Shown piece after piece: positions 64-58,032 of a stretch of 64,000 bases of DNA (position 1 is the first letter of the stretch; every line of letters starts with the position of its first letter). Origin of the DNA: an uncultured Helicobacter sp. Lineage in GTDB: Bacteria > Campylobacterota > Campylobacteria > Campylobacterales > Helicobacteraceae. Under the pieces are notes generated by a model that was not told the origin of the DNA, made no database searches, and saw only the letters and a list, made by a program, of their open reading frames with translations. Both the position numbers and the translations under genes were made by a program. The stretch covers positions 15,061 to 79,060 of the forward strand of contig CAYXGY010000005.1 in the NCBI GenBank assembly GCA_964464895.1, written 5' to 3'.

Positions 64-72
64 TATTTGCCT

Positions 73-1310: not shown

Positions 1311-1318
1311 GGGAAGAT

Positions 1319-2500: not shown

Positions 2501-3098
2501 TTTTTTGAAAAATCACCCACTTGTATTAAGTAACGAAAATGATGATGGTAGATTGAATTCTGCTACAAATGAAGAAATGATTTTAAAAAAATTGTTTGAA
2601 AAGTTCAAAGAAATCAAAATTCCAAGTATTAGAGAATGGTATGATTTTAGAATCTACGATAAAGAAGAGATTTTTGTTAATATTAAAATTTCAGATTTAA
2701 ACAATGGCTCGGCAGATAACTGCTCATCAAAATTAGGTATGGGTTATGCTTTAAGCGGGGTTAAAAATATGCCTTTGACGTGGGATAAGTTTCATAGTAT
2801 GCTAGTAGACGAATTAAAAATAGGCCATGATTACTACTTTTTAGTAATAAATAAAAATAACACACAAGATTGCTTTTATACATCGCTTAAAAGAATTCAA
2901 ACGCTCGTGCCAAATGGTAATAATTTACCTTTCCAATGTGATTGGTCTAAAAATAGGGAGTTTTCAAATAGGACTGAGATTGAGGCTATGCGGTATATTT
3001 TGGATATTTATATAAAAAGTTGGGATAAAAAGGTCAAGGGATACCCTTTTATGCTAAAAGAAATGCTAGTGAATCATAGAATTTTGGAGACTGAATAA
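2472..3098 (+). CDS. putative Type II restriction endonuclease partner of the 1319-2500 methyltransferase (family not recognised)
   Basis: The 208-aa ORF overlaps the methyltransferase stop by 29 nt on the same strand. I recognise no motif, so the call rests on context only. Confidence 0.4.
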   Translation: MTQYLENIVDFLKNHPLVLSNENDDGRLNSATNEEMILKKLFEKFKEIKIPSIREWYDFRIYDKEEIFVNIKISDLNNGSADNCSSKLGMGYALSGVKNMPLTWDKFHSMLVDELKIGHDYYFLVINKNNTQDCFYTSLKRIQTLVPNGNNLPFQCDWSKNREFSNRTEIEAMRYILDIYIKSWDKKVKGYPFMLKEMLVNHRILETE

Positions 3099-3132
3099 GG
3101 AAATATTAGGTATTTTAAATTAGGAAAAACAG

Positions 3133-3786
3133 ATGGAATTACTTTTTTTGCCTCAAAATATTTTAAGAATTGCGCAAGGGGTGCTAACAACGTTCCAGAT
3201 TGCGCTCATAGCGATTCTATTTTCTTGTCTTTTTGGTTTTATTTTGGGCTATGTGATGACTCTGCGCTCTAGGATTTTGCGTAGCATTTGCAGGCTTTAT
3301 TTGGAATCTATCCGTATTATTCCGATTCTTGCGTGGTTGTTTATCGTTTATTTTGGCTTCTCAAGTCTAATAAATTTAAGTGGAGTGAGTGCGTGTATCT
3401 TGGTTTTTAGCCTTTGGGGAATCGCAGAAATGGGAGATTTGGTGCGGGGAGCAATTTCAAGCTTGCCTCCACATCAAGCACAGAGTGCTAGGGCTTTGGG
3501 CTTGAGTGAATTTGCAGTGCAATATTACATCGTATTTCCGCAGAGCTTCAAACGTCTTTTGCCTAGTCTCGTGAATCTTTTTACAAGAATGATAAAAACA
3601 ACTTCTCTCGCGGCACTGATTGGGGTGAGTGATATGCTAAAAGTCGGGCAACAAATCATTGAAGTGAATCTCATTGCTTATCCGACAGCAAGTTTTTGGG
3701 TCTATGGAGGAATCTTTATGATATACTTTGCCTTGTGCTATCCTCTCTCACTTTGGAGTAGAAATTTAGAAAAGAAATTAACTTAA
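3133..3786 (+). CDS. amino-acid ABC transporter permease, copy 2
   Basis: 217 aa and multi-TM, with an EAA-like loop (GAISSLPPHQAQSARALGLS). Confidence 0.85.
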   Translation: MELLFLPQNILRIAQGVLTTFQIALIAILFSCLFGFILGYVMTLRSRILRSICRLYLESIRIIPILAWLFIVYFGFSSLINLSGVSACILVFSLWGIAEMGDLVRGAISSLPPHQAQSARALGLSEFAVQYYIVFPQSFKRLLPSLVNLFTRMIKTTSLAALIGVSDMLKVGQQIIEVNLIAYPTASFWVYGGIFMIYFALCYPLSLWSRNLEKKLT

Positions 3787-3800
3787 ATTTAAGGAAATAA

Positions 3801-4550
3801 ATGAGCCATCAACCGATTCTTTTGAGGTTAGAAAATATTACCAAAAAATATGGAGAAAATCTCGTCTTGGATTCTGTGAGTTTGAATGTTACAAAGGGTG
3901 AAGTTTGTGCGATTTTGGGACCTAGTGGTTGTGGGAAAAGCACATTTTTGCGATGCATTAATGGCTTAGAATCCATTCAAGGCGGCAAGATTTTTTTTAA
4001 AGATACGCAAATTGGTGGAGAAAATATAAAAGTGCAATGGACGAAGATTCGGCAAAAAATTGGTATGGTGTTTCAAAATTACGAGCTTTTCCCGCATTTA
4101 ACTGTATTAGAGAACATTATTTTAGCACCGATGAAAGTGGAGAATCGCAAGAAAGAAGAGGCGATTTCTCAAGCTCTTGGGTTGCTTAAACGCGTGGGTT
4201 TGGAGCAAAAAAAGAATGTCTATCCCAAAGAATTAAGTGGAGGACAAAAACAACGCGTTGCGATTGTACGTGCTCTTTGTATGAATCCAGAGATTATGCT
4301 TTTTGATGAGGTAACAGCTTCGTTAGACCCAGAAATGGTAAAAGAGGTGTTAGATGTGATTAAAGAGCTAGCAAGTGATGGAATGACAATGCTACTAGTA
4401 ACCCACGAGATGAAATTTGCTCAAAATGTTGCAGATAGAATCGTGTTTTTTGACCACGGTAGAATTGCTGAAATTGCAAGCCCACAAGAGTTTTTTAAGA
4501 ATCCAAGCAGTGAGAGAGCCAAAAAGTTTTTGAGCGTTTTTGAATTTTAG
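3801..4550 (+). CDS. amino-acid ABC transporter ATP-binding protein (GlnQ-like)
   Basis: Walker A GPSGCGKST, signature LSGGQKQRVAI, Walker B MLFDEVTSALD. Confidence 0.9.
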   Translation: MSHQPILLRLENITKKYGENLVLDSVSLNVTKGEVCAILGPSGCGKSTFLRCINGLESIQGGKIFFKDTQIGGENIKVQWTKIRQKIGMVFQNYELFPHLTVLENIILAPMKVENRKKEEAISQALGLLKRVGLEQKKNVYPKELSGGQKQRVAIVRALCMNPEIMLFDEVTASLDPEMVKEVLDVIKELASDGMTMLLVTHEMKFAQNVADRIVFFDHGRIAEIASPQEFFKNPSSERAKKFLSVFEF

Positions 4551-4872
4551 AGATGTGAATATTGCCAAAAACTGCTTCAAAATATTAGAGACAGCAGCAA
4601 GTAATATTTTGTGATTCATTCTCTCTTTTTATCTTTGTGATATGTCAATGGAGTAAATAAAACACGCATTGCTTTGTTTTTCTCGCATTTTTTATTGATT
4701 TGAGATTTAAATCTGCTACCAAATTTTTATATTATTATTGATAAGATAGGGGCAAAATTTATGGTTTTGCATAGTCTTTTTTAGGAAATAAAATGCGCCA
4801 TTTTAACATAATTTACAATGGACAATCCCTTAAAAAACTTGTATAATTGCGAAACTTTATTAAGGAGAGAAA

Positions 4873-4983
4873 ATGAAAAAGCTTTTAGTTTTATTGGGAA
4901 TTTTAGGTTTAATGTTTGCATTTAATGCGTGTAAAGGAAATGACTATCAACACCCTTCCCACCGCAGTGGTCAGACAAAATAA
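4873..4983 (+). CDS. 36-aa mini-lipoprotein candidate (not in ORF track)
   Basis: Reads MKKLLVLLGILGLMFAFNACKGNDYQHPSHRSGQTK: signal peptide plus lipobox (FNAC). AAGGAG sits 4-11 nt upstream of the ATG. An extended -10 (TGTATAAT) lies at 4840-4847. Confidence 0.4.
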   Translation: MKKLLVLLGILGLMFAFNACKGNDYQHPSHRSGQTK

Positions 4984-5084
4984 CTTCAAATAAGACTTTG
5001 GGATTCTGTTACGAGAATCCTTGAAGTTGCAAGACAAATCTTTATAATAATTCTAAAAAATACAAATTAATCATAAAGTAATTG

Positions 5085-5101
5085 TGGAATAAAATTTGCT
5101 T
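5085..5101 (+). promoter_or_regulatory. sigma54 (RpoN) -24/-12 promoter upstream of flgI
   Basis: TGGAATAAAATTTGCTT has GG (5086-87) and GC (5098-99) separated by exactly 10 nt and matches TGGAAC-N5-TTGCTT. The -12 element is 43 nt before the flgI ATG at 5142. Confidence 0.6.
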
Positions 5102-5141
5102 ATCTTTTGATAGTTTAAGCGAGAAAAAGGATATTCAAGCA

Positions 5142-6227
5142 ATGAAACAACTTCATAAGATTCCAATGATTTTGGGCGCATTAATACTCTTTGCCATTCC
5201 CTCTTTGGGCGCAAAAGTGGGTGATTTGGTGAATGTTGTGGGGGTACGTGATAATCAACTCATTGGTTATGGTTTGGTCGTAGGTCTCAATGGAACAGGA
5301 GATAAAACCACCTCTACTTTTACAATGCAATCCATTTCAAATATGTTAGAAAGTGTCAATGTTAAGGTTGATCCTAATGATATTAGCTCAAAAAATGCCG
5401 CGGCAGTAATGGTAACGGCAAAATTACCAGCTTTTGCAAGACAGGGTGATAAGATTGATATTGTTGTCTCTAGTATCGGAGATGCGAAATCTTTAGAAGG
5501 AGGTACTCTTTTGCTTACGCCTCTTAGTGGTTTAGATGGTAGAATCTATGCTGTGGCGCAAGGTGCTGTTGGAATCGGGGGCAAAAGTGAGAGAGGAGGG
5601 AGTGCAAACCATCCCCTAGCAGGTTTGTTACCTAATGGTGCTACGGTGGAGAGAGAAGTAAGCTATGACCTTTATAATAAAACGCACGCAACTTTAAGTT
5701 TGAAAGAATCTAATTTCCAAAATGCAGTGCGCATTCAAACGCGGATTAATGCGACTTTTCCTAATCCGCAAAATACAGAAGAATCCCAACAATCTCCTAT
5801 CGCAACCGCAGTAGATCCTCGCACAATCAAATTGCAACGCCCACAAGAGATGAGTATGGTAGAATTTTTAGCTCGTGTGCAAGAGATTGAAGTAGATACA
5901 ATCAAAGAAGATAGAATCATCATTAATGAGCGCACAGGAACGATTATTGCTGGTATGAGCGTAGAGGTTTCCCCTGTGGTGGTAACGCATAATAATATTA
6001 CAATCAAGGTCAGTAATGAGCCAAACAATGACCCAGAGGCTGTTGATATGGGTAATGGAGCGACCTTTAGTGCGCAAGGCGCAATGGTAACGAGTGAAAA
6101 TAACCCAACAATTTCAAGCGTAACGCGTGCGTTGCAACGTATGGGAGCGACGCCTAAAGATGTGATTGCGATTTTAGAAACAATGAAAAAAGCAGGCGCA
6201 TTTAATGCGGATTTAGAGATTATATAA
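5142..6227 (+). CDS. flgI: flagellar P-ring protein FlgI
   Basis: Signal peptide (MKQLHKIPMILGALILFAIPSLGA) followed by KVGDLVNVVGVRDNQLIGYGLVVGLNGTGD, the canonical FlgI start. I trimmed the start from 5082 because the sigma54 promoter lies inside the longer ORF. Confidence 0.9.
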   Translation: MKQLHKIPMILGALILFAIPSLGAKVGDLVNVVGVRDNQLIGYGLVVGLNGTGDKTTSTFTMQSISNMLESVNVKVDPNDISSKNAAAVMVTAKLPAFARQGDKIDIVVSSIGDAKSLEGGTLLLTPLSGLDGRIYAVAQGAVGIGGKSERGGSANHPLAGLLPNGATVEREVSYDLYNKTHATLSLKESNFQNAVRIQTRINATFPNPQNTEESQQSPIATAVDPRTIKLQRPQEMSMVEFLARVQEIEVDTIKEDRIIINERTGTIIAGMSVEVSPVVVTHNNITIKVSNEPNNDPEAVDMGNGATFSAQGAMVTSENNPTISSVTRALQRMGATPKDVIAILETMKKAGAFNADLEII

Positions 6228-9009: not shown

Positions 9010-9963
9010 ATGAATCTTTTTATTAAACGTAATGGTATGGTGGTAAGGGAAAGCATACAAGCCGTTGAAGCGGTGCAAGTAGATGCGGATATACTTTGGA
9101 TTGATTTGCTACATCCAACAGCGCAAGAAATAGCTTATATTTCTAAAACATATTTGTTGGACATTCCAACTAAAGAAGAGCGGGAAGAGATTGAGGAATC
9201 CTCACGTTATTGGGAAAATAGTGAAACGGTAACGATTAACACTTACTTCCTGACGCGTCCAAGCGAGGGAAATATCTTACATAACGAAACAATTACCTTT
9301 TTGATAACGCATAATATTCTTTTTACCGTGCGGTATAGTGAGTTTAAGGTGTTTGATGAAATCCAACAACGTGTGCTCGCGAGTCCTAAAAACTTTGAAG
9401 ATGGATTTGACTTGATTTCTAAAATTTTTGAATTACGTGTAGAAAAAGATGCGGATATGCTAGAGAGTATCGCAAAGCAAACGCGTCTATTGCGTCGCTC
9501 TGTCGTGTTTGATAAGAAGTTAGGCGATGAAATTTTAGAGAATTTGTCCGTTTTGCAAGAAATGCACTTGAGCTTGCGTGATAGTTTGTTTGATAAAAGG
9601 CTTGCGATTGCTGCATTATTGCGTACGCGCAAGACAGATGTAGAGGTGAAAAAAGATTTAGGAATCGTGCTAAAGGACATTAATTCACTTGTAGATTTTG
9701 CCAATGTCAATATGAATATTTTAGACAATATCCAAACGCTTTTCTCAAACCAAATCAACATTGAACAAAACAAAATTATCAAGATTTTTACAATGGTAAC
9801 CGTGGGAATGATGCCACCGACATTGATTGCTACGATTTATGGAATGAACTTCAAATATATGCCAGAGTTAGAATGGACTTACGCATATCCTGTGGTTTTA
9901 GTCATAATGATTATTTCTACGATTATTCCTTTTGTTTATTTCAAAAAGAAAAAGTGGATGTAA
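9010..9963 (+). CDS. corA: magnesium/cobalt transporter CorA
   Basis: YGMNF (GMN) motif before the last TM, two C-terminal TMs, 317 aa. Confidence 0.9.
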
Positions 9964-10019
9964 GGGGGATTAGAGGGGCAGGGGGTTGGATATATGCTTA
10001 AGATTGCGAGATTTTAACC

Positions 10020-12384: not shown

Positions 12385-12954
12385 TTAAGTGTATAAAGTA
12401 TGCTCTAAAAGCACTTTAAATCCAAGCAGAATCAAAATACATCCCGCACTCACTTCCAAAATGCGTGTGGGGAATGTCGCAAAAGTCTTGCTCAAGATAT
12501 AGGTGATAAAAACACAGATAAAGGTAACAACCCCAATCCAAGACGCACTATTCATTAAGGGAATATTTTGTGAAAATATCAGCACGCCCGCTGCGAGTGC
12601 GTCTATGCTTGTTGCGATTCCAATGATAAGCAAAACCAACGATGAAAGGCTTTTTCGTGTTTGTTCCTCTTCATTGGAGCTAGAATCCTTAATGATTTTT
12701 AGCCCTAAAGCCAAAAAGACGATAAAAGTAATCCAATGGTCAAATGTATCTGCAAAATGTGAGAAACTCTCATTGGCAAGCCATAGTCCAGCCCATCCAA
12801 GAATTGGCATTAGCGTTTGGAAGAATGCGGTAACGAGTGCAATTTTTAACCCATTTTGAATACGCCATTTTTCGTATAATCCATAGGAGAATGCAACAAC
12901 GCACGCATCTACTGCTAGTGTGAGCCCGAGTAAGAGAATCTCTAAAGAAACCAT
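12385..12954 (-). CDS. mntP: manganese efflux pump MntP family
   Basis: 189 aa, six TM segments. The N-terminus LTLAVDACVVAFSYG is typical of DUF204/MntP. Confidence 0.75.
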   Translation of the reverse strand: MVSLEILLLGLTLAVDACVVAFSYGLYEKWRIQNGLKIALVTAFFQTLMPILGWAGLWLANESFSHFADTFDHWITFIVFLALGLKIIKDSSSNEEEQTRKSLSSLVLLIIGIATSIDALAAGVLIFSQNIPLMNSASWIGVVTFICVFITYILSKTFATFPTRILEVSAGCILILLGFKVLLEHTLYT

Positions 12955-43991: not shown

Positions 43992-46800
<2,809 letters not shown>

Positions 46801-46810
46801 AGAAAAAGTA

Positions 46811-47146
46811 ATGGCAAAGTTGCTTTTTGGTTATAGTTTGTATCACGCAAGCACGCAAGATTATGAGGCAATCTTGACGAAGTTGCGGGCAGAGTTTGCT
46901 GTAAATAAGCCAGAACTCTATTTGAATAATCCAGAATATTTACTCTTTACCCCGACAAGTGCGGAGTGGCAAAAAGAAATTGTAACGTTGATTGCAAAAT
47001 TAAAGGCATTTATGAATGCAGAAATAGAATGTTTGCGCAATAATGGAAGTAATGCACATATCGTCTATCGCTTCGGAATCCTAGAAATGGAAAGTGCGTT
47101 TTTTCAATTCCCGCCAGATTTAGACGATGATGAGGAAGAATCTTGA
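46811..47146 (+). CDS. hypothetical protein with an acidic C-terminus
   Basis: 111-aa ORF close behind guaB. I recognise no motif. Confidence 0.45.
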   Translation: MAKLLFGYSLYHASTQDYEAILTKLRAEFAVNKPELYLNNPEYLLFTPTSAEWQKEIVTLIAKLKAFMNAEIECLRNNGSNAHIVYRFGILEMESAFFQFPPDLDDDEEES

Positions 47147-47866
47147 ATTTTTCTGTATGATTCTTTATGGAGTAAATAATCTAAAATTTGCAAGCAATCA
47201 TATTGGTGTGTTTTGCTCAAAAGTCCAAAGATTCTAAATATTTGTATGAAAATTATAATATTTTCTTTGGTTATTTCTAAGTAACCACATTCATTGCTTT
47301 GAATATTTCTGCCAATAAAGCTTTGGTTGTTAGCATCTTTTAGACTGCTTAATGCAATACAGAAATATAGCATTGGCATTGTGCCCACTGCAAATTGCTT
47401 CTCACGCACAATAATTTCACAAAGTAAATCATTATTTTGAAATCTGTGTATCAGTAAAGGATAGCTTACATTTGCTTTTAAAAATTCTATGCCGTTGAGA
47501 TTATCATTCACAAAGTTAGTCCTTGTTATTTTTTCTTTTTGCTCTATAAAATCTTGATAATTTGCTATGCTAGTTTGTAATTCCGCAATATTCTTATGAG
47601 TTATCCATTTTTCATATAATGCAAAATCTAAAAACTCACTCAATTCATAAATTTGTTTTGTTTTTCCATTTGCGCCGATAAAATGATAAATTTCATTTGC
47701 TTACAACCTTGTCATAGCCTATTTGCCATTCAATGTAGTGCTTGGGCGTCATAATGGTTTGTGTCGGTGCGACAGGGATACCATAATCACTAAAGGCAAA
47801 TCTCTCTTTAATCCGAATTTTGCCCATAGCTTTGCTAAGGGGGAAGGAGTATCTTAGGCTATTCAT
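47104..47866 (-). pseudogene. frameshifted ORF translationally coupled to the 47863-48906 methyltransferase; probable inactivated restriction endonuclease
   Basis: The ATG at 47866 overlaps the methyltransferase TGA in an ATGA junction. A 57-aa frame (MNSLRYSF...YDKVVSK) stops at 47693. The 179-aa frame is already open from 47700 (ANEIYHFIGANGKTKQIYE-LSEFLDF...), so a 1-nt shift in 47693-47700 would fuse them into about 250 aa. Confidence 0.35.
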
Positions 47867-48906
47867 ACATATTCCTTAAACAAGGTTTCAAAATATTTTT
47901 GCACGTGCGTATTGGGTGTGGAATCCATAAAGGCATCTGAAATTTTTAGAAATTCCTCGTGATTAATAAAAACATCTAAATTACCAAAGTAATAAGGAAG
48001 CTTGTCGGCGAATTTCTTAAAGTGATGAATGTAATAGTAGTATTGTATGTTATCTTGAAATACGCGAATAGAATTTGCGCTACATTTTGTCATAAAGGTT
48101 TGATTGCGTTTGAGCGCATTAATATCTCGTAAGGTGTGGAAATAAGCGATTTCTTTACGCTCATCTTTCGGGTTTGGATACTTGGCAACATAATTACCAA
48201 TAAAATCAAAATCGTTTAATCGTAGCTTTTGCCCGCTATCTGTGCTAAATTGGTAATTTTTAATAAAATCATAATCCATTCCCTGAGGATTCCTTGCATA
48301 GAGAGCGATAATAATAGGGAAAAAGGTTTTAGAATGGGGCGTAAAAACCTCCGAACTAATGATAAGGCTATCAAGCAGAGCATATTGCTCTTTAAAAAAT
48401 CTTAATGCTTTGAAATTACTCTCCTTAATCAAATATGAGAGTGGGTGAAGCACACAGATAAAATCTGGTTTTAAAAGGGCATAGGAACGCAAAAATGAGA
48501 TTCCTAAATCCCTGTGAGCAAGATTTTCATCTACGTTAAAGAGTTGCTGTTTAATGTTGTTGTTAATAATAGAGGTTTTGTCGTTATAGGGAGGGTTTCC
48601 AATGATAATGAGGTTTTCATTTTCGGGGATTCTAAATTTACGCCGAGAAACACTTAAAAGAGAATTTGTTGCAATTGTGCGGATTTTAGAATTGACTTTT
48701 TGTAAGGCAATCTCATCTATATCTGCACCTAAATAGTGATAATCACCAATGAAAAAATCTCCATAGCCACAAGCATTATCAAAGAGTAAAAAGTCCTTAA
48801 GATTTACTCTTTTTTGTAACAACTCATAGGCTTTTTGGACAATTTTTTTGGGCGTATAAAATGAACCAAGATTAACAGCTTGTTCTTTGGTTAGGTGTTT
48901 TTGCAT
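47863..48906 (-). CDS. N6-adenine DNA methyltransferase, gamma class
   Basis: GSFYTPKKIV (motif X), DNACGYGDFF (motif I) and IIGNPPYN (motif IV). Confidence 0.85.
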   Translation of the reverse strand: MQKHLTKEQAVNLGSFYTPKKIVQKAYELLQKRVNLKDFLLFDNACGYGDFFIGDYHYLGADIDEIALQKVNSKIRTIATNSLLSVSRRKFRIPENENLIIIGNPPYNDKTSIINNNIKQQLFNVDENLAHRDLGISFLRSYALLKPDFICVLHPLSYLIKESNFKALRFFKEQYALLDSLIISSEVFTPHSKTFFPIIIALYARNPQGMDYDFIKNYQFSTDSGQKLRLNDFDFIGNYVAKYPNPKDERKEIAYFHTLRDINALKRNQTFMTKCSANSIRVFQDNIQYYYYIHHFKKFADKLPYYFGNLDVFINHEEFLKISDAFMDSTPNTHVQKYFETLFKEYV

Positions 48907-48925
48907 TCTTCTAATTTCCTAAATT

Positions 48926-49975
48926 TTACAAACTCTCAAAGTCATCTTTTAGATTTTCATAATGTCTATTTTTAATAATGTCTGGTAGTTCCTTTACAGA
49001 GGGAAATTCCTCTGTAATCTCCAAACAAAGTGTTTCAAGTAGCTTATTCCCAAGTAAATTAGCATATTTACCGCGCATTGCTTTTTCATACCAAGCAATC
49101 AAATCAGATTCTGTAATGATGCTTTGAATTTTATTTTTCCAACCTATTTGTGTAAGCAAGGATAAAATGACAGACTTTTCTGCTTCTTTGCACATTATTA
49201 CGATTCTATCGCTATTAAGGTTGGTTACGATATTTTCTGCTAATTCTATGTCTAAACTTAAATGTTTAATCTGTATTGCAATTCCCCAATTTGCATACAT
49301 ATCAAGTCCTCTATCTGCGGCATTGGTTACCCCAACCCTATAAATACGAGCCCTTTGAGTGTGATAAAGATGATTAGTATCAAGGCGCATTATAGACTTA
49401 GTAAAGTCCTCAAATTCTTGTAAAAGCTCTAATTTATCTTGATTGATTGAAAGAGTAACGCTTAATTCTAGACTTTGTGCTAATGTATCAAAAAGAGAAT
49501 GTGTAATAATCTCATAGATTTTATCCAAGCTACGTTTTAATCCAGTTTCACGCCAAAATAGGTTAATAAAATGGGAGATTTCAAAATTTTCTTTATCTAT
49601 ATTCAAGCAATAATTGAGTGCATTATTAAGTTGTGTGTATTTTCTAATAAATTTATTATAGACATAACTTTCAACTGTTCCATTGGATTTTTTATTAAAT
49701 CTGCCTAATTCCGCTATGAATTTAGGCGGAATCGCATTAAATAAATCATCTTGGAATTTTGCTGAACTTGTAGAGATTCTACCAAGTAGCGCAATACAAA
49801 CTTCATCTCTCCAAGATTTACTTTTGGTTCTGTATGTTTCAAGGTCATCTAAATCTATATCGCCAAAAATTCTATCGCGATAAAGAATTTCTGCTATTTG
49901 AATGGGTTTATATAAATGAATTCTTGATTTTGTAATCACTTTGTCTAAAGCATTTTTTGCTTCTCTAATTAACAT
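48926..49975 (-). CDS. Type II restriction endonuclease candidate, partner of the C5 methyltransferase (possibly HaeII-family)
   Basis: 349 aa, overlapping the methyltransferase gene by 11 nt on the same strand. The N-terminal SRIHLYKPIQIAEILY resembles what I recall of HaeII-family enzymes; this is unverified recall. Confidence 0.5.
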   Translation of the reverse strand: MLIREAKNALDKVITKSRIHLYKPIQIAEILYRDRIFGDIDLDDLETYRTKSKSWRDEVCIALLGRISTSSAKFQDDLFNAIPPKFIAELGRFNKKSNGTVESYVYNKFIRKYTQLNNALNYCLNIDKENFEISHFINLFWRETGLKRSLDKIYEIITHSLFDTLAQSLELSVTLSINQDKLELLQEFEDFTKSIMRLDTNHLYHTQRARIYRVGVTNAADRGLDMYANWGIAIQIKHLSLDIELAENIVTNLNSDRIVIMCKEAEKSVILSLLTQIGWKNKIQSIITESDLIAWYEKAMRGKYANLLGNKLLETLCLEITEEFPSVKELPDIIKNRHYENLKDDFESL

Positions 49976-50918
49976 ACTTTTCCTTAAGGCGGTTTTGTAA
50001 TGCTTTTAGCATTTCTCTTGCTACCGCTTCTATTACAGGTATGGCTACACTATTACCTGCTTGTTGTTTGATTTGTGTATAAGAGCTTATAATTTTGTAG
50101 CTTTCTGGAAATCCTTGCAAGCGTAGCATTTCTCGTTCTGTTAGCCTTCTCTCGTTATTTACTAAAAGATAATTTGCTGAAGCACCAGCTCTAAGAGCAC
50201 AAGAAAAATGATGAGGAGTAATAGAACCACCTACATTTTCGTGAGTAATATAAGGTTTAGCAATAGTTTTTTTCATTCGTTTTTGCCTTGATTGCTTAAT
50301 GGAATCTTTCACATAATATTTTTTATCTACATTGGATTCTAAAACATATTCAAGTGTCCTTTTGTGATTTATTGGGAAGGGAAAGACAAAATCAACTTGT
50401 TCTTTAAAGCCACAAATAATAATTCTTTCTCGTTTTTGTGGGAGTCCAAAATCAAGCGCATTTAATACTTTACTATAAACAGAATAGCCTAAAGACTGTA
50501 AATGTGCCAGGATAGTTTTAAAAGTATGTCCTTGATTATGAGCTGTGAGGTTACGTACGTTTTCTAACATAAAAGCTTTGGGTTGTTTATCTTTTAAGAT
50601 TCTTTCAATTTCAAAAAATAGTGTTCCCTGCGTTTCGTGTTTAAAACCCTCTTTGTCTCCTATAATACTAAAAGGTTGGCAAGGAAAACCTGCCAAAAGT
50701 ATGTCAAAGTTTGGAATTTCATTAGAATTAATTTTAGTAATATCTCCTTTGGGGTATTCGCCAAAATTTGCAAAGTAGGTTTTAGCTGCTTCTTTATTCC
50801 ATTCTGATGAAAATACGCAAATTCCACCCACCTTTTCAAATCCTAGCCGAATCCCACCAATTCCAGCAAACAAATCGACAAAGGTAAAATGGTTTTGATT
50901 CTCGTAAATATCTTTCAA
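49965..50918 (-). CDS. DNA (cytosine-5)-methyltransferase
   Basis: Motif I FVDLFAGIGGIRLGF, IV GFPCQPFS, VI MLENVRNL, VIII QKRERIIICG, X AGNSVAIPV. Confidence 0.95.
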   Translation of the reverse strand: MKDIYENQNHFTFVDLFAGIGGIRLGFEKVGGICVFSSEWNKEAAKTYFANFGEYPKGDITKINSNEIPNFDILLAGFPCQPFSIIGDKEGFKHETQGTLFFEIERILKDKQPKAFMLENVRNLTAHNQGHTFKTILAHLQSLGYSVYSKVLNALDFGLPQKRERIIICGFKEQVDFVFPFPINHKRTLEYVLESNVDKKYYVKDSIKQSRQKRMKKTIAKPYITHENVGGSITPHHFSCALRAGASANYLLVNNERRLTEREMLRLQGFPESYKIISSYTQIKQQAGNSVAIPVIEAVAREMLKALQNRLKEKYVN

Positions 50919-50953
50919 TATTTTGCCTTTTTAGTATAATAGCAATTCTATTT

Positions 50954-51817
50954 TTATAATTCCGTTTTCAACACCGCGCCATTTGCCGCGTTGCTTTTAT
51001 CATTTTCGTTCAATATTCCAAATAAGTTATTTTGTTCGATATTAGATTTTTGAAAACTTAATAATTTAAATTCCTCTCTAATTTTCCCTTGATTCTTCAA
51101 TCTATCGAGTATCATTTCATAATAGGGCTTATGCAGCTCGCAGCTAATCCATTGCCGTTTGAGTTGTTCGCATAATATGATTTCGCCCCCGCTGCCACCA
51201 AAAAGAACAAATACAGAATCTCCTTCATTCGTGCAAGATTTAATAAGCATTTCGACAAGTTTAAGCGGAATTTGGCATGAATGAAAAGTCTTATCCTTGC
51301 TCACATTTTTGACCAAATCAAAATAAAACCATGAATAAGGCATTCTACCCTTATGTCCTTCTGCTAATCTTTGCATGATTCTCTTGTCGGTTGGATTTTG
51401 ATAGGGCATTGCGATATTGTCTTTATAGAAATGATTCTCCTTGCTTTTAGTTGCATGCAAAATGCTTCTGTGTGCCGTTGTCAGTCGCCTTTTGCTATGT
51501 CCAACATTTGTATTATAGACCCAAACATAATCTTGCACATCATAGCTTATAGAATCCAAACATTTTACGCGCAAATAGGCATTTTGTTTGGGATAATTCA
51601 TCATAAAAAGGTTTCCGCTAGGCTTGAGCACACGCATTGATTCTGTTGCCAATTCGCAATACCAATCAATATAATCTTCCCATTTTTGCGTGTATTTTGA
51701 GCCATTATAGTCTATGCCAACATTATAATCGGGGTCGCCATAAACCATATCAATGCTAGAATCGGGTAAGCTTTTAAGCACCTTTAAAACATCATCATTG
51801 TAGAGTTTAAATTCCAT
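50954..51817 (-). CDS. beta-class N6-adenine/N4-cytosine DNA methyltransferase (N6_N4_Mtase type)
   Basis: An N-terminal DPPY-variant (VYGDPDYN) precedes the C-terminal SAM motif (VFVLFGGSGGE), giving the IV-then-I order. The last 13 codons lie in the duplicated ilvD tail. Confidence 0.85.
   Translation of the reverse strand: MEFKLYNDDVLKVLKSLPDSSIDMVYGDPDYNVGIDYNGSKYTQKWEDYIDWYCELATESMRVLKPSGNLFMMNYPKQNAYLRVKCLDSISYDVQDYVWVYNTNVGHSKRRLTTAHRSILHATKSKENHFYKDNIAMPYQNPTDKRIMQRLAEGHKGRMPYSWFYFDLVKNVSKDKTFHSCQIPLKLVEMLIKSCTNEGDSVFVLFGGSGGEIILCEQLKRQWISCELHKPYYEMILDRLKNQGKIREEFKLLSFQKSNIEQNNLFGILNENDKSNAANGAVLKTEL
50961..50995. repeat. 35-bp direct repeat, copy A (duplicate of the ilvD 3' end)
   Basis: TCCGTTTTCAACACCGCGCCATTTGCCGCGTTGCT is 34/35 identical to 52621-52655, exactly 1660 bp away. 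Confidence 0.95.
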
Positions 51818-51822
51818 ATTGA

Positions 51823-52599
51823 CTACCTTATCAAGATATATTCACAAGATTTTAAAAATTTTATAGAATCTAAACACAGAGGCTCATTAAAAGTATATGA
51901 CCAAAGCTTTAGGCTATTCCTATTTCTCACAAGATACACACAAATAATTTGCTTAAAATCTAAGCCCGAATTATAATAATAAAGATAAGGGTGGTAAATT
52001 TGATAGATATTAAAGTCTTTTGGTTCTCCATTTTTTGCCTCAAAGATTCCAATAAGCCCTTTATATTCTATTGTCAAATCAATTTCTATTTGTTGATTTT
52101 CGGCATTAATTAAAATGTCTCCAAATTCATACTTTAGAGTTGTTTTTGTGCGATGAGGAAAATAGGTTTTAGGACGATTTTCAATTCCTACATTCTCAAA
52201 CTCTAAATCTTCTCCAAACAAAAAATGGTGTAGGATTCTTTGATTATTTGCAACACTCAAAATATTACTCTCGCTATCATTATATTCATTGAGCAGACTC
52301 TTTTTATATTGCCACCTTATAGAATTTTGCATTTCTTCAAGAGGGTGATAAAGCAATTTTATGCCCTTAATAAATTGATGATAGCCTCCACCCAAATGAA
52401 GCAAACAAATGTCTTGTTCTTTAAAAGAATAGGGTAATTTATCGCTTGAATCTAGCTTTGTTGCATCAAATGGATTTCCAAAGCTATGTTTTTTAGACAA
52501 TTCCTTAACTAAATCATTATGAAATCTAAGCTCATTCTTAGTCCTACAATGATTCCATAAAGCTTCTAATACTAAATGCTTTTTATTGATTTTTGCCAT
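51823..52599 (-). CDS. Type II restriction endonuclease candidate (PD-(D/E)xK-like), partner of the beta-class methyltransferase
   Basis: 258 aa, ending 5 nt upstream of the methyltransferase gene. It has the motif-like string IEIDLTIEYKGLIGIFEAKNG (D...E-A-K). Confidence 0.5.
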   Translation of the reverse strand: MAKINKKHLVLEALWNHCRTKNELRFHNDLVKELSKKHSFGNPFDATKLDSSDKLPYSFKEQDICLLHLGGGYHQFIKGIKLLYHPLEEMQNSIRWQYKKSLLNEYNDSESNILSVANNQRILHHFLFGEDLEFENVGIENRPKTYFPHRTKTTLKYEFGDILINAENQQIEIDLTIEYKGLIGIFEAKNGEPKDFNIYQIYHPYLYYYNSGLDFKQIICVYLVRNRNSLKLWSYTFNEPLCLDSIKFLKSCEYILIR

Positions 52600-52613
52600 T
52601 CCTCACATTCCCC

Positions 52614-54902
52614 TCACACCTCCGTCTTCAACACCGCGCCATTTGCCGCGTTGCTCACAAGCAGCGCATAGCGGCGTAGCCATTTGCTTGGAATCTCCTT
52701 CTTAATCGGCTTCCATTTCGCCCGCCGCGTCTCTAAAACATCGGAATCCACGAGTAGCTCGAGCGTCCCCTTGCTGACTGAAATCGCGATTCTATCGCCG
52801 TCCTCAATCAGCGCAATCAGCCCGCCCTCTGCCGCTTCGGGGCTGACATGCCCAATGCAGCCGCCCCTTGTCGCGCCGCTAAAGCGCCCGTCTGTAATCA
52901 GCGCGACCGACTCGCCAAGCCCCATTCCCATAATCATGCTCGTAGGGCTCAACATTTCCTGCATTCCCGGTCCGCCCTTTGGTCCCTCGTAGCGAATCAC
53001 AACAACATTCCCCGCCTTGACCTTGCCGCCCGCAATGCCCGCAATCGCCTCGTCTTGCGAGTTGAAGCACACCGCGCTGCCCTCAAATTCTTTCATCGAT
53101 TCCGCCACAGCGGCGACCTTGAGCACAGCGCCCTCACGTGCGAGGTTGCCATAGAGAATCTTGAGCCCGCCCACCTGTGAATACGCATTCTCATTATGCC
53201 GAATGATGTTCGTATCCACAATCTCCGCGCTAGCAATGCGTTCGCCCAACGTCTCGCCCGTAATCGTGAGCGCGTCGAGGTAAAGCGTGTGGGGAGTAGA
53301 ATGAAGTTGCAGCACAAAAAAATCGCTAATTTCTTTCGGATAGAGCGACTCATAGCGAATAGGCAGCTGTTCAAAGGCGACTTGTCGGAATCCATGCTCC
53401 GCAAAAAACAAGCGGGTTTGTTCGGTAACCTCAAACATATCAAAAATGAGCTCGCTAAAACCCTCTGTATAGGTTTGAATATAACCTTTGTTTGGACTAT
53501 CTGTAACCAGCATAGTATATTCTGATTCTTTAAGAAATTCAAGCAGTGTTGCATAAAGTCTTTCTTCGAGATGATGAGGAGCAGAGAGATATTGATTTAA
53601 GACAAAGAAACAATTAAGAATCCCAATGCCTTTTTGCGTTTCACAAACACCAATACAACCAACAACTTTATCATTATCAAGCGCAATCCAATATGCTTCT
53701 TTAGAAACATCATGGCTTGCAAGCCTTTGCAGATATGACTCAAAAAAAGGTTTGCGCCACGACTTTTCTTTGCCTACAAATAGCGCAATCGCATCGTCTT
53801 GATAGTGCTGCATTTCTTCTGTAAAACGTACAATGCTTGGCGCATTTTTAGGCAAATCTTGCCATTTTGGCGATTTTGTTTGGGGCATGGTGCGCTTCGC
53901 GACCTCGTTCATCACCGCCGAGACGCCACCTGCGCGGTGAATGTCTTCCATGTGAATGCTACTTAAAGCGGGCGCAATCTTGGCGATATGCGCGACTTGC
54001 GAGGCGATGGCATTAATCGAATCTAGGTTGAAATCCACACCCGCTTCTTTGGCGACTGCGAGCATGTGCAAAATCGTGTTCGTGCTACCGCCCATTGCCA
54101 TATCCACGACAAACGCGTTATGCACGGCTTTGGCGTTGAGGATATTGCGGAATCGGAATTTTTCGCTCAAGGCAGAATCGAGCGCAATTTCCACGATTCT
54201 GCGCGCGGCTTTGCGCAAGAGCTCCTCGCGCTCGGGCGTGAGTGCGAGAATCGTGCCGTTTCCGGGCAGCGCGACACCCATTGCCTCGCAGAGCGTGTTC
54301 ATCGAGTTTGCGGTAAACATTCCGCTACAACTCCCGCCGCTTGGGCAAGATTTGCATTCGATTTCGTGTAGTCTTTTTTCGTCAATCTTGCCATCGCCAA
54401 ACGCGCCGACAGCCTCAAAGGTGGAGTTGAGGTCGAGAATCGTCCCGTCATCGAGCCGCCCCGCGCGCATCGGTCCGCCGCTGACAAAGATTGTCGGCAC
54501 ATTCACACGTAGTGCGCCCATCAGCATTCCCGGCACGATTTTGTCGCAATTGGGCAGGCAAATCATCGCGTCTAGCGCGTGCGCGTTCATCATCGTTTCG
54601 ATACTATCGGCAATCAGCTCGCGGCTTGGCAGCGAATAGAGCATGCCGCTGTGCCCCATCGCGATGCCGTCATCGACGCCAATCGTGTTAAACTCAAACG
54701 GCACGCCGCCCGCCTTGCGAATCTCGTCCTTGACGATTTGCGCGTATTTGTTCAAGAAAAAATGCCCGGGAATGATGTCAATGTAGCTATTTGCCACGCC
54801 GATAAAGGGCTTTTCAAAGTCGCTATCTTGCAACCCTGTAGCGCGCAAGAGGCTTCTATGGGGGGCTTTTTGGTAACCTTTTTTGATGATGTCGCTTCGC
54901 AT
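52614..54902 (-). CDS. ilvD: dihydroxy-acid dehydratase with a large internal in-frame insertion
   Basis: Carries the IlvD/Edd motifs [46 protein letters not shown]. It is 762 aa, against roughly 550-620 for IlvD enzymes I know. The DNA is GC-rich. Confidence 0.9.
52621..52655. repeat. 35-bp direct repeat, copy B (native ilvD 3' end)
   Basis: TCCGTCTTCAACACCGCGCCATTTGCCGCGTTGCT encodes [12 protein letters not shown] of IlvD. Confidence 0.95.
53286..53891 (-). other. AT-rich in-frame insertion module inside ilvD (codons 338-539), GNAT-like
   Basis: The segment [10 protein letters not shown]...LQLHSTPHT interrupts ...VMNEVAKR / [15 protein letters not shown]. It contains [16 protein letters not shown]...GILNCFFV...FAEHGF. 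GC falls from 58-68% to about 33% in hand-counted lines. Confidence 0.7.
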
Positions 54903-54963
54903 AATTTCTCCTTTGTATTAAAGCTGAAATTTTAGCAAATTTTGCGACAAAAATCTTATGAAA

Positions 54964-55514
54964 TTAAGTTTTTGGGCAGGTTAAGTCTAACTCAATCTTG
55001 TGAGAATATTTGATAGAATCGTTGGAAATTGGCTTATAGCTTAAAATTTTTTTAAGGAGTAATGGATCTGCGGCATGTCTTTTTGAGAGTCTTTGAATCC
55101 TCACTTGTTCATCACAAGTAGTATGTATCCAAATATCTGTTTCTTGCAAGTATTTTAGATTTCCAGCAATCAAAATGATAATTTTTACATAGGGAGGGAG
55201 GAATTTAAAGATAAGGCTGTAATTGTTTCTTACAAAATGAGGTGAAAGTCTTATTTTGGGGCGTGCAATAAAAATATTAAGAGAAAGAGTGTTGTCATCA
55301 AGTGTTACGATTTGATAAGGTTTAAAATCGCCAAAACCTTCTTTACGAAGTCTTTTACCTAAAAAACTTTTGCCATTTCCACATCTTCCATCAATTGCGA
55401 TAAGTATATAGTCTCTTTTACTATATTCAGCTTGTTTTAAGAATCTGCTATTCTCTCTCTCTCTCTCTGTATTTCTTCGCAGAGAAATGCTAGATTATTT
55501 TTAAATTCTATCAT
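54964..55514 (-). pseudogene. P-loop nucleoside/nucleotide-kinase-like gene, out of frame at a (CT)8 repeat (phase-variation candidate, OFF as sequenced)
   Basis: The ATG at 55514 (AAGG upstream) reads MIEFKNNLAFLCEEIQRERER then stops at 55437-39. A second frame is open from 55494 to 54964 and encodes ...ILIAIDGRCGNGKSFLGKRL (Walker A) ...DIWIHTTCDEQVRIQRLSKRH. Confidence 0.6.
55453..55468. repeat. (CT)8 dinucleotide simple-sequence repeat, (AG)8 on the coding strand
   Basis: Reads directly as T(CT)8G. It sits 15 codons after the ATG of the kinase-like gene. Confidence 0.95.
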
Positions 55515-55536
55515 TAAACTTACCTTTCTTTTAGAT

Positions 55537-58032
55537 TTAATCTTTGATTCGCATACTATTGCCTACGACAAGCAAGGAGCTAAGCGACATAGAGAGTGCA
55601 GCAATGAGCGGAATCACAAATCCAGCCATTGCAAGCGGAATTGTTAGGGTATTATAGAGCAAAGAAAGAATGAGATTTTGTAAGATGAAACGATAGGTTT
55701 TGCGTCCCAAGCGGAAAGATTCCGAGATTCCTTGTACGTTATCATCAAGCACAACCACATCACTTACGCTAATGGCTAAATCAATTCCTCCACCCATTGC
55801 AATTGCAATGTCGCTTTTACCTAGCGCGATAGAATCGTTAATCCCGTCTCCCGCCATTACGACTACTTTGCCTTGTTGGTGTAGTTTATCAATGAAGTCC
55901 GCTTTATCAACTGGGCTTTGTGCCGCATAATATTCTGTGATTCCAACTGCTTCTGCTACATTGCGACAGACGTGCTCATTATCACCACTCAAGAGAATGC
56001 AGGTAATGCCTTGTGATTGGAGTGTTTGGATTGCCTCTTTTGCATCTTGCTTCAATGTGTCTTGTAGGGTGAATTTTGCGAGAATCTTAGAATCTTTGGC
56101 AAAATAAAATACACTTGCTTGCGTGTCTATTAAGGCAGACGGAATCGTAACTTGGTGTTCTCTTAAAAGGGCTAGATTACCCCCTAAATAGGTATTTTCT
56201 TGCATTTTTGCTACGATTCCACGTGCGTTTATCTGCGTCATTGAATCTAGTGCGATTTCTCTGCCTTTACCGATAAACTCTAGCACGGCTTTGCTTACAG
56301 GGTGAGTGTTTTGTGTGAGCATTGCGCGTAAGATTTCAGATTCCGCAGTTTCTAGTGCGTTTGTAGGTGTGAAATATTGCACTTCAAGCACCTTTAGCTT
56401 ACCCTCTGTTAATGTGCCTGTTTTGTCTAATACTAGGACATTCGCTTTGGCAATGGTCTCTAAAAAACGCGCTTCTTTGAAAAGAATCTTGTGTTTTAAG
56501 GATTCACTAAGCCCAATGAGGGAGGCGATAGGCGTCGCAAGGGCAAGCGCGCAAGGGCAAGCAATGATTATCACAGAAATCATTACCATTAAAGAACGTT
56601 CAAAGGGTGCATTGAGCACATATTCCCAGACTAAAAAGGTGCTAAAGGCTAGGGAGAGAATGACGAACGAGAAATAGCGCGAAATATGATTGGCTGCTTC
56701 TTGAATCTTGGGACGCGCATTGAGGGAATTTTCTACTAATCCTACGATTTTCATCATCAAAGAATCTTTGAAGTCCTTGCTCACTTGATAATTGAAAGGG
56801 TAATTAAGAGCCAAAGAACCAGAATAAATGGAATCTCCTGTTTTTTTGATTCGTGGCAAGGATTCCCCACTCATCGCACTTTCATTGCAGAGTGCTTCTG
56901 TACTCAACAAAATGCCATCTAGCGCAACGCGCTCCCCGGGTCTTACTTGCACAATATCCCCCACGCGCACAGATTCTATTGCGATTTCTTGGAAAGATTC
57001 TTGCGCCTGCGAAGAATAGGCGTCTAAATCATTTTTCGCTTGTGTAGATTGTTGTGTTTGATTGTTTGCTTCTGTCTTTTGTGGAATCTGCAATACGCGT
57101 ACGCTTAGAGGCATTTGCGCATTGAGTTTGTCTAGGCTATCCACTGCGCTTTTTTTGCCGCGCACTTCCAAAAACTTTCCAATCAGCACAAAGGTAATAA
57201 TCATCGCTACCGATTCAAAGTAGGTTTCACCTCCATTAAAACTTGCGTAAATAGAATAAAGATAAGCTAAACTCGCTCCACTAATCACAAGCAAATCCAT
57301 ATTAGGGGTTTTGTATTTGAGTGCAATCCACGCGCCACGCCAAAAAATGATTCCGCTAAAGAACATTACAGGGGTGGAGAGTGCAAACCCTGCGAAGTTT
57401 AAGATATTGCGCATTTCATTTGAGATTCCGCTGAAATATCCTGCATATTGTGCGACAGCAATCCACATAATATTCATCACACAAAAGATTCCAACTACCA
57501 TTTTGATATAATAATCACGTTTTTCTTTTTGGGCATAAGCTTCCTGTAAGCGAGGGTCATAAGCGTGTGCGTTATAGCCAATTTGTCGAATCGTTTGAAT
57601 GATTTGAGAGATTTTTATTTGCTTGGGGTCATAAAGAATCGTGGCTTTGTTGTTGGTATAATTAATATTGACTTTTGTGATTCCGTCGGTCTGGGCGAGG
57701 ATTTTTTCATTTAGCCATACACAGGCAATGCAATGGATTCTTTCTAAAATAAGGGAAATTTCGCACAGGTTGTCTTTAGTATGAACATAACGTTCAAAAA
57801 ATGGCAGAGAATCAAAAGATTCTAAGCTTTCATTTTGCAATGCTTCATTGGCTGGTTCTAATGTATTGTTGCCTAGTTTGCTATAAAAATCCTCTAATCC
57901 TGTGCTATTTAAAAGACTATAAACCCCCTCGCAACCTTTACAGCAAAAATACCTCTCCACCCCTTTTATCGTCGTTTTGATGAGCACCGCTTCATCAAAT
58001 TCTAAATGGCAATGGTCGCAAATATGTTTCAT
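55537..58032 (-). CDS. heavy-metal (copper) translocating P1B-type ATPase, FixI/CcoI-like
   Basis: N-terminal Cys-rich domain (CDHCHLEF...FCCKGCEGVY), HMA-like domain, the CPC motif (ACPCALALATP), DKTGTLT and GDGINDS. A Gln/Asn-rich segment (QKTEANNQTQQSTQAKND) is inserted. Confidence 0.9.
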   Translation of the reverse strand: MKHICDHCHLEFDEAVLIKTTIKGVERYFCCKGCEGVYSLLNSTGLEDFYSKLGNNTLEPANEALQNESLESFDSLPFFERYVHTKDNLCEISLILERIHCIACVWLNEKILAQTDGITKVNINYTNNKATILYDPKQIKISQIIQTIRQIGYNAHAYDPRLQEAYAQKEKRDYYIKMVVGIFCVMNIMWIAVAQYAGYFSGISNEMRNILNFAGFALSTPVMFFSGIIFWRGAWIALKYKTPNMDLLVISGASLAYLYSIYASFNGGETYFESVAMIITFVLIGKFLEVRGKKSAVDSLDKLNAQMPLSVRVLQIPQKTEANNQTQQSTQAKNDLDAYSSQAQESFQEIAIESVRVGDIVQVRPGERVALDGILLSTEALCNESAMSGESLPRIKKTGDSIYSGSLALNYPFNYQVSKDFKDSLMMKIVGLVENSLNARPKIQEAANHISRYFSFVILSLAFSTFLVWEYVLNAPFERSLMVMISVIIIACPCALALATPIASLIGLSESLKHKILFKEARFLETIAKANVLVLDKTGTLTEGKLKVLEVQYFTPTNALETAESEILRAMLTQNTHPVSKAVLEFIGKGREIALDSMTQINARGIVAKMQENTYLGGNLALLREHQVTIPSALIDTQASVFYFAKDSKILAKFTLQDTLKQDAKEAIQTLQSQGITCILLSGDNEHVCRNVAEAVGITEYYAAQSPVDKADFIDKLHQQGKVVVMAGDGINDSIALGKSDIAIAMGGGIDLAISVSDVVVLDDNVQGISESFRLGRKTYRFILQNLILSLLYNTLTIPLAMAGFVIPLIAALSMSLSSLLVVGNSMRIKD

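Follow-up and report, generated by a model that had tools for sequence, protein, structure and literature searches.

Domain insertion is a recognised route to multidomain and allosteric proteins, and most natural cases are ancient and fixed, with the steps that led to them no longer visible. In IMP dehydrogenase a complete pair of CBS (Bateman) domains interrupts the catalytic domain at a surface loop, and the two halves of the catalytic domain align to uninterrupted relatives; this CBS insert is dispensable for catalysis and senses nucleotides. Domains of the GCN5-type acetyltransferase (GNAT) fold occur in larger enzymes as well, among them the C-terminal domain of human O-GlcNAcase and the N-terminal domain of mycothiol synthase MshD, where the fold was retained and the acetyl-CoA-binding or catalytic residues were lost. 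The gene considered here is ilvD of an uncultured Helicobacter sp., which encodes dihydroxy-acid dehydratase (DHAD, IlvD) and is located at 52614..54902 on the minus strand of a 64,000-nt stretch of DNA (contig CAYXGY010000005.1, positions 15,061 to 79,060; hereafter the window). The analysis showed that a hypervariable loop of this enzyme received an entire foreign GNAT gene by in-frame capture, giving a nested-domain architecture, that the insert has a single origin and was kept under purifying selection, and that its presence or absence is a polymorphism shuffled by homologous recombination. Nested domains as such are known, whereas a GNAT domain within IlvD is apparently undescribed and provides an unusually young, polymorphic and dissectable example. 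The first-pass annotation of this DNA knew of no described IlvD with an internal acyltransferase-like domain, and a full-text literature search found no such IlvD either.

The insert shares features with each of several described systems. An IMP dehydrogenase with a CBS pair is encoded within the window itself (45346-46800). Its CBS insertion is ancient and nearly universal, whereas the GNAT insertion is found in a few Helicobacter lineages and is polymorphic there. Like the GNAT-fold domains of O-GlcNAcase and MshD, the insert has kept its fold and lost cofactor-binding or catalytic residues; those domains are terminal or in tandem, however, whereas the domain in IlvD is nested, and its inactivity is suggested by sequence comparison. 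Inteins are likewise in-frame, sporadic and compositionally distinct blocks in conserved housekeeping enzymes. Unlike inteins, the insert is without a Hint fold, splicing residues and a homing endonuclease, and the GNAT domain must stay in the mature protein. Length variants of the connecting region within the IlvD/Edd family, including the longer E. coli-type IlvD, appear to lie in the same general fold region (query residue 334 aligns to residue 380 of 2gp4), but they are short secondary-structure additions of 14 to ~50 residues, whereas the insert can be recognised as a domain of foreign origin. Just downstream of the insertion site, the region that connects the two domains is known to vary within the family, and S. 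oneidensis 6-phosphogluconate dehydratase (Edd) carries an extra beta-hairpin (383-396) there (PMC5770437).

Over its whole length, the insert is homologous to free-standing GNATs of the 2q7b type, represented by S. agalactiae NP_689019/2q7b, S. aureus 3d8p and Anaerostipes rhamnosivorans WP_137329691. This family is without a known substrate and passes no NCBIfam model. The shared motifs are FW(I/V)A...VVG.IG, a KKFFV-like motif, F(Y/F)..GF and LP..Y..YP, and the window copy also has SAPHHL in common with the Anaerostipes protein. Unlike the free-standing proteins, the window copy is embedded by linkers of 18 and 6 residues, has an extra segment at beta5 and has lost a conserved Gln, Arg, His and Arg; it is only ~30% identical to the closest free-standing member.

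The complete ilvD open reading frame (ORF) consists of 762 codons and a stop codon, and its product was identified as an IlvD/Edd dehydratase by both family domains and the curated equivalog model. Residues 1-337 (53892..54902, minus strand) form the N-terminal cofactor-binding part, which ends in a helix; Pfam ILVD_EDD_N matched residues 31-338 with profile positions 1-299 of 316 (E=2e-124). Residues 540-762 with the stop codon (52614..53285, minus strand) comprise the last part of the N-domain, the loop that connects the domains and the beta-barrel of the C-terminal domain, with the catalytic Ser; here ILV_EDD_C matched residues 565-756 (E=8e-76). The NCBIfam IlvD equivalog TIGR00110 reached 746.5 bits against a cut-off of 618, with the match split in two stretches, and PRK00911 scored 784.6 against a cut-off of 644. 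The alignment to PRK12448, a 616-aa IlvD model, ran into the insert region. IlvD/Edd enzymes carry a C-D-K motif with the Fe-S Cys, the Mg Asp and the carbamylated Lys, and a T-D-G-R-x-S-G motif with the catalytic Ser (PMC5770437). Both motifs were present, as C119-D120-K121 and as TDGRFSG (T670-G676, with Ser675), and together with D77/D78, C192 and E649 they were invariant in 21 aligned Helicobacter IlvDs. Among the insert-bearing alleles, the ratio of nonsynonymous to synonymous substitution rates (dN/dS) was 0.03-0.08 in the flanks and 0.04-0.08 in the C-terminal part (residues 540-762). With invariant catalytic motifs and a C-terminal domain whose translation has to pass through the insert, the insert-bearing protein is probably made as one chain and remains an active dehydratase in which both IlvD halves assemble.

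The insert comprises residues 338-539, that is 606 nt or 202 codons at 53286-53891 (T338 at 53891-53889, T539 at 53288-53286). The first-pass annotation had described an in-frame block of about 200 codons between the two halves of a normal IlvD; direct reading of the sequence gave exactly these coordinates and 202 codons, and the halves were recovered by both Pfam domains and TIGR00110. Its statement that the flanking motifs are normally a few residues apart also held, the distance being 6-7 residues in solved dehydratases (query residues 332/540 align to 329/337 of 6nte and to 374/381 of 6ovt) and 3-12 residues in 81 of 103 related Helicobacter IlvDs. As uninterrupted homologues have the parent halves directly joined and the insert is a complete domain, the protein has a nested-domain architecture.

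Three parts could be distinguished within the insert, all on the minus strand. The N-terminal linker (residues 338-355; 53838..53891) is missing from free-standing GNATs, whose alignment begins at residue 358. It was not conserved among the insert-bearing alleles and was modelled mostly as coil, with a predicted local distance difference test score (pLDDT) of ~60 for the 10 residues at the start of the model. The GNAT-derived domain (residues 356-535; 53298..53837) is the end-to-end counterpart of a free-standing GNAT protein of ~160 aa. The C-terminal linker (residues 534-539, HSTPHT; 53286..53303) ends in H-T, which was kept in all insert-bearing alleles.

The G+C content (GC) of the insert was 0.396 and that of its third codon positions (GC3) 0.322, while the flanks had a GC of 0.55-0.58 and a GC3 of 0.68-0.70 (0.677 in the N-terminal part). 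For the 31 other genes of the window GC3 was 0.323 +/- 0.041, with a maximum of 0.388. As the GC3 of the insert matches these genes and that of the flanks exceeds them, the insert is at host composition and the enzyme is the outlier. The composition switch reported by the first-pass annotation was found at 53581-53640 (20/60 G+C, as claimed), but the 60-nt lines adjacent to the junctions had 29-38/60, slightly below the quoted 35-41. Its description of the insert as native applies to composition and does not extend to ancestry: the named close free-standing relatives, from Lacrimispora, Clostridium, Paenibacillus, Streptococcus, Eubacterium and Eggerthella, were all Gram-positive (mostly Firmicutes, one Eggerthella), and no Campylobacterota were among them.

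The host loop, between NEVAKR and the following conserved segment starting with Leu, was 3-208 residues long in enterohepatic Helicobacter, mostly 3, 4, 7 or 12. The insertion site falls at profile position 299 of 316 in ILVD_EDD_N, which puts it after the final N-domain helix and before the stretch that runs into the long loop connecting the two domains. Since variation in length is tolerated in proteins that are otherwise at least 84% identical, the loop is probably solvent-exposed. Stretches of low complexity rich in S, N and T, 46-62 residues long and in several unrelated versions, occupied the same loop in P0019, P0034, P0050, P0067, P0073, P0077 and P0112, with H. japonicus, H. rodentium and MIT 05-5294 among the carriers (alignment A1, columns ~360-575). 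In P0032 (720 aa; locus L010, 808-2970) the loop held a different insert of 160 residues with a GC of 0.30 that is unrelated to the GNAT domain. This insert was weakly EVE/PUA-like (Pfam EVE at E=0.006, below threshold; PH1033, PDB 1wmm, at E=0.7) and was itself nested in a low-complexity linker of the H. japonicus/rodentium type. It would be a second independent domain capture at the same site of IlvD.

Profile comparisons make the homology of the insert to GNATs secure, although the window copy is borderline for Pfam. A profile of the four embedded copies matched 2q7b with E=1.1e-16 and 3d8p with E=3.9e-6. All four copies matched Pfam GNAT models, in each case with a match to Acetyltransf_1, which was best in a sister copy (E=9e-8); the window copy was the weakest, with 21.3 bits alone and 17.9 bits within the whole protein at a cut-off of 20.7. 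Among 1.84 billion cluster representatives, an exhaustive hidden Markov model search recovered 160 relatives, of which 150 were listed, and an additional profile search was made with free-standing GNAT members added to the insert profile. The exhaustive search gave no match better than 1e-30. Nearly all of the 150 relatives listed were GNATs of about 100-250 aa and none of them was of IlvD length. The best relative, P0121 (E=3e-20), clustered with the Anaerostipes rhamnosivorans protein (WP_137329691). Free-standing GNATs aligned from their first to their last residue onto IlvD residues 358-535, which indicates that a whole ORF was captured and is now framed by the 18-residue N-terminal and the 6-residue C-terminal linker.

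The structure of the insert was predicted by AlphaFold from an 82-sequence alignment, resulting in a model with a pLDDT of 82.5 and a predicted template modelling score (pTM) of 0.79. Its elements followed the order beta1-alpha1-alpha2-beta2-4-alpha3-beta5-alpha4-beta6-7, which is that of GNATs. When the model was compared with known structures by Foldseek, 2q7b was the top match (E=1.9e-10, template modelling score 0.82), followed by hundreds of GNATs; the PDB matches at E<=1e-3 numbered 396, and the 50 listed were GNATs without exception. The predicted fold of the insert is that of a GNAT, as the first-pass annotation had proposed from a resemblance and as the profile and Pfam matches also indicate. 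Members of the same free-standing family were also found fused to helix-turn-helix domains of transcription regulators (P0128/P0410, 303 aa, from Eggerthella sinensis; P0306; P0318; P0329), which shows that the family serves elsewhere as part of a regulator.

The embedded copies have diverged from the family at positions that free-standing members conserve. At 53 positions with at least 85% conservation in 78 free-standing members, the window copy kept 23 of the family residues and the sister copies 30-34. Gln66, Arg133, His193 and Arg220, conserved to 99-100% in the free-standing members, were replaced in every embedded copy. Arg133, the residue directly before motif A, was present in 78/78 free-standing members and was L, Y, A and Y in the four embedded copies. 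This position and the degenerate motif A loop correspond to residues 439-446 of the window copy (LSAPHHLE; 53565..53588, minus strand). The Gly of motif A (65/78 free-standing members) was His in the window copy and Ser in its three sisters, and the last position of the motif, A, S or G in 60/78 free-standing members, was E, A, A and V, with Glu in the window copy. None of the copies therefore has the Q/R-x-x-G-x-G/A pattern: the window copy reads A-P-H-H-L-E and the sisters S-(I/D)-S-L-(A/V). A reading of Gly to Glu from a small alignment was rejected, as the 82-sequence alignment puts His in the Gly column and Glu at the last position. The degenerate acetyl-CoA loop noted in the first-pass annotation thus stands as regards the Arg and the motif Gly in every embedded copy and the last position in the window copy, but the SAPHH part did not decay in place: Anaerostipes P0121 has YRSAPHHLG, so that this part was inherited from the donor family. 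The Tyr of alpha4 is the usual general-acid position in GNATs. It is present in 94% of the family and in the three sister copies and is Phe in the window copy, which also has M-F in place of T-P where the other three of the four copies keep a D-T-P motif.

Features were also gained. An extra segment (residues 466-485; 53448..53507, minus strand) of 20 aa in the window copy and 22 aa in the sister alleles was present in all embedded copies and was a gap in all free-standing relatives. Because HMMER aligned the same residues of 2q7b (128-141) to both of the h-h-h-D-S/T-P units that flank it, the segment looks like a tandem duplication of this beta5 unit. Its model confidence was lower (pLDDT 58-68). 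Insert residues 131-151, which cover both D-x-P units with their intervening hairpin, were among the best-conserved parts of the insert across the deepest split, with 12 of 21 positions invariant among the embedded copies as compared with 39% overall. At family-invariant positions the embedded copies had the replacements Y to E, T to C, S to E, H to R and D-R to K-E in common. Among the conserved features gained by the embedded domain are the extra segment, which resembles a beta-hairpin, and the change to K-E in YPKEISDFF.

The module is confined to a few rodent-gut Helicobacter lineages. An identical ilvD (0 single-nucleotide polymorphisms over 2289 nt) was present on contigs assembled independently from six SRA runs, in two variants of the upstream sequence, which would mean that more than one strain is involved. 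Three of these six assemblies (L004, L005 and L006) differed from the window at 20/600 nt directly upstream (~54903-55502), a difference that strain variation or a slight indel shift may explain, and in all six ilvD and the 600 nt downstream were identical. Related copies of 766-768 aa came from no fewer than three other lineages: P0002, with NCBI WP_297681517 as a member that carries just the name 'dihydroxy-acid dehydratase' in an annotation that overlooks the insert; P0003 and P0004, both from a yellow-necked field mouse metagenome; and P0005. Among 185,579 species-representative genomes only two loci had the module, both in Helicobacter metagenome-assembled genomes and both in ilvD. No free-standing paralogue of the module was found in the window or the related loci. 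The single origin of the insert is supported by the common site, the extra segment, the derived substitutions and the terminal H-T.

Within the insert dN/dS was 0.13-0.33, that is 3-6 times the value of the flanks, synonymous sites were near saturation between the window and the sister clade, and length was held at 202-208 aa across the carriers. The probability of 202 sense codons arising by chance was ~2e-6 from base composition. The earlier argument that so long an open frame is unlikely by chance and that the module is probably translated with the enzyme is supported by purifying selection on both the insert and the C-terminal domain downstream of it. The closest relatives in the flanks (P0006-P0014, 96-98% aa-identical there) lack the insert and have four residues, KESV, in place of the 202. 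At the nucleotide level the P0006 locus (L001) was ~91-92% identical to the window ilvD, with 92.5% in the N-terminal and 90.5% in the C-terminal part. The histories of insert and flanks were discordant: between P2 and P5 nucleotide identity was 85-92% in the insert and 73-87% in the flanks, and between P2 and P3 it was 74-81% in the insert and 88-100% in the flanks, which makes ilvD a recombination mosaic. Between L009 and L011 the insert differed at 19-26% of nucleotides, yet ilvD codons ~692-762 were 99-100% identical, which points to a very recent recombination tract over these last ~70 codons.

The explanation we favour, and regard as probable, is that the insert is a nested and probably non-catalytic GNAT-derived accessory domain in a working dehydratase that arose from one in-frame gene capture. 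The complete gene of a small GNAT-fold acetyltransferase was captured in frame in a probable surface loop of IlvD, from a donor family that is found today in gut- and animal-associated Gram-positive bacteria, with the Anaerostipes protein and 2q7b as its closest members. The capture happened once, before at least four of the sampled lineages split, and the allele has since spread both by vertical inheritance and by homologous recombination in the conserved ilvD flanks. Judged from its evolution, the module would be translated as part of one polypeptide of ~84 kDa, in which the two IlvD halves assemble into a working dehydratase and the GNAT domain forms an independently folding bead on the loop. 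The GNAT core was retained. Ancestral acetyl transfer was most likely lost, given that family-invariant polar residues are gone, including the Arg directly before motif A and the Gly of the motif, that the alpha4 Tyr is gone from the window copy and that new conserved features were gained. The domain may persist as a ligand-binding, regulatory or interaction surface and not as a second enzyme.

An origin by error or by a mobile element fits the data far less well. An assembly chimera or a disrupted ilvD pseudogene open by chance, which the first-pass annotation had raised as a condition that would refute it, could account for the sharp composition switch at both junctions. It is scarcely credible given that the junctions were the same in six independent assemblies and four diverged lineages, that the frame has the negligible chance probability given above, and that dN/dS is well under 1 in both insert and flanks. 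The first-pass annotation had also suggested an in-frame mobile module. A selfish element of this kind, intein-like or similar to miniature inverted-repeat transposable elements (MITEs) or Rickettsia palindromic elements, inserting itself into genes, would agree with the in-frame position, the deviant composition, the sporadic presence among close relatives and the imperfect 8-nt direct repeat at the junctions (GTGTGGGG at 53287-53294, GTTTGGGG at 53878-53885). The repeat reported earlier does exist, but 23% of composition-preserving shuffles of both junction windows gave an 8-mer pair with at most one mismatch, and the other insert-bearing alleles, which have different sequences at the N-terminal junction, lack it. 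As it is at chance level and not conserved, it was rejected as a target-site duplication and gives no support to a mobile module. A search of the insert and its surroundings for inverted or direct terminal repeats gave only short chance matches, neither the window nor the related loci contained a second copy, and a transposon- or MITE-like element was rejected on these grounds; the two loci found among the species genomes, both in Helicobacter ilvD, also speak against spread to other genes. The ilvD product had no match to a Hint, endonuclease (LAGLIDADG) or transposase domain. The block starts with Thr but ends in P-H-T and is followed by Leu540, instead of ending in His-Asn before Cys, Ser or Thr as in inteins, and its fold is predicted to be GNAT. 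No Rfam match at E<=0.1 was obtained in 50500-56000, and an intron or other RNA element was rejected. A mobile module is thus very improbable.

More serious is the possibility that the module is a functionless passenger in a tolerant loop, open and folded only because its breakage would destroy an essential dehydratase, with precise removal being rare. This fold-constrained passenger is the main rival, and we consider it unlikely but well within reach of the data. The loop tolerates 3-208 residues, low-complexity stretches included, alleles 97-98% identical in the flanks work without the insert, functional residues of the ancestor have been lost, with the window copy furthest along (23/53), and dN/dS is several times higher in the insert than in the flanks. 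Against a passenger, recombination is frequent and insert-less alleles are common, so that a useless block of 600 bp should be easily lost; yet it was kept at constant length in at least four lineages with near-saturated synonymous sites in the insert. Moreover, the derived polar residues and the extra segment were conserved across the deepest split, beyond what upkeep of the fold would need. A bifunctional enzyme, in which the embedded GNAT is still an active acyl-CoA-dependent acyltransferase of altered specificity coupled with the dehydratase, is less likely and in our view improbable. It would agree with the confident prediction of the GNAT core and of the V-shaped beta4/beta5 region, with the alpha4 Tyr and D-T-P motif kept in three of the four copies, and with CoA binding in GNATs being mostly a matter of backbone contacts. 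The Arg found in all 78 free-standing members and three further residues conserved to 99-100% were replaced in all copies, however. In the window copy, in addition, Glu occupies the last position of motif A, Phe replaces the Tyr and M-F replaces T-P. A segment of 20-22 residues was inserted at beta5, which forms one wall of the acyl-CoA cleft, and the window insert barely passes the Acetyltransf_1 cut-off alone and falls below it in context.

Several observations weigh against an accessory domain that has lost catalysis and gained a regulatory role. Purifying selection on a folded passenger in an essential enzyme could alone yield a dN/dS of ~0.2-0.3. No residue of the Helicobacter IlvD body was specifically tied to the insert-bearing alleles, which speaks against an interface that co-evolved closely and makes a regulatory role less probable; the same lack of co-adapted residues suits a passenger. 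The closest free-standing relative, Anaerostipes P0121, also has His at the Gly position of an atypical motif A, the alpha4 Tyr is retained in the three sister copies, and, as CoA is bound by GNATs largely via backbone amides, the loss of motif residues does not prove that binding was lost. In addition, the full-length AlphaFold model (pLDDT 51.9, pTM 0.38) was too poor to place the insert with respect to the active site, the lid or the dimer interface; the underlying alignment combined 30 IlvDs of Helicobacter with 55 GNATs, and its IlvD rows were too alike.

If the nested accessory domain did acquire a function, it could be that of a metabolite sensor, for example of CoA or acyl-CoA, which, lying beside the connecting region, modulates the mobile lid or the oligomeric state of the dehydratase. 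The dehydratase product, 2-ketoisovalerate, is the common precursor of valine, leucine and pantothenate/CoA. This proposal and the related one, that the loop acts as a 'landing pad' for repeated in-frame capture of ORFs, are speculative and rather improbable. A sensor would make this the first allosterically regulated DHAD, with a regulatory module born from the capture of a whole foreign gene; a landing pad, having received a GNAT domain once and an EVE-like domain once, would be a natural system for how nested domains arise. If the module is a passenger, the finding is a curiosity. Steps that are invisible in fixed cases of domain insertion can still be seen at this locus, namely the uninterrupted allele, intermediate loop expansions, end-to-end ORF capture, remodelling, and a second, unrelated domain in a sister lineage. 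The locus is tractable for the study of in-frame capture of whole genes, of the tolerance of host enzymes and of the path from a captured enzyme domain to a sensor. The Fe-S enzyme DHAD is also of practical interest, both in the design of herbicides and antibiotics and in biofuel pathways, and this loop naturally accepts insertions of ~200 residues.

In the window, ilvD forms a single-gene island in both composition and homology (52614-54913), the flanks having more than twice the GC3 of the 31 neighbours (0.68-0.70 against 0.32). Similarity to other Helicobacter lineages ended at most 11 nt upstream of the ilvD start and close to its stop codon; the genes next to ilvD differed in every lineage. 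Among lineages, flank GC3 ranged from 0.36 to 0.72. The insert is older than the lineage splits and yet at host composition, while the flanks are not, which suggests that the flanks were repeatedly renewed by recombination from a GC-rich source, or by GC-biased conversion.

Directly downstream of ilvD, at 47104-52599, three restriction-modification (R-M) systems are encoded in a row. They consist of an R.Pab1-like endonuclease with an N6 methyltransferase, a HaeII-like endonuclease with a C5 methyltransferase, and a DUF6996/DUF6997 protein with an N4/N6 methyltransferase. The genes downstream of ilvD differed in the other lineages examined, and the window, L001 and L009 each had different R-M genes. 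The last 35 nt of ilvD (AGCAACGCGGCAAATGGCGCGGTGTTGAAGACGGA, 52621-52655) recurred with 34/35 identity at 50961-50995, at the 3' end of an N4/N6 DNA methyltransferase ORF 1.6 kb downstream, which as a result ends with the C-terminal peptide of IlvD. The sister lineage L009 contained two more copies of the ilvD 3' end, of 105 nt and 85 nt (9905-10009 and 12481-12555), among its downstream R-M genes. Insertion of R-M cassettes with long target duplication was described for H. pylori (PMC2853133), and by analogy the 3' end of ilvD looks like a recurrent target of such insertions.

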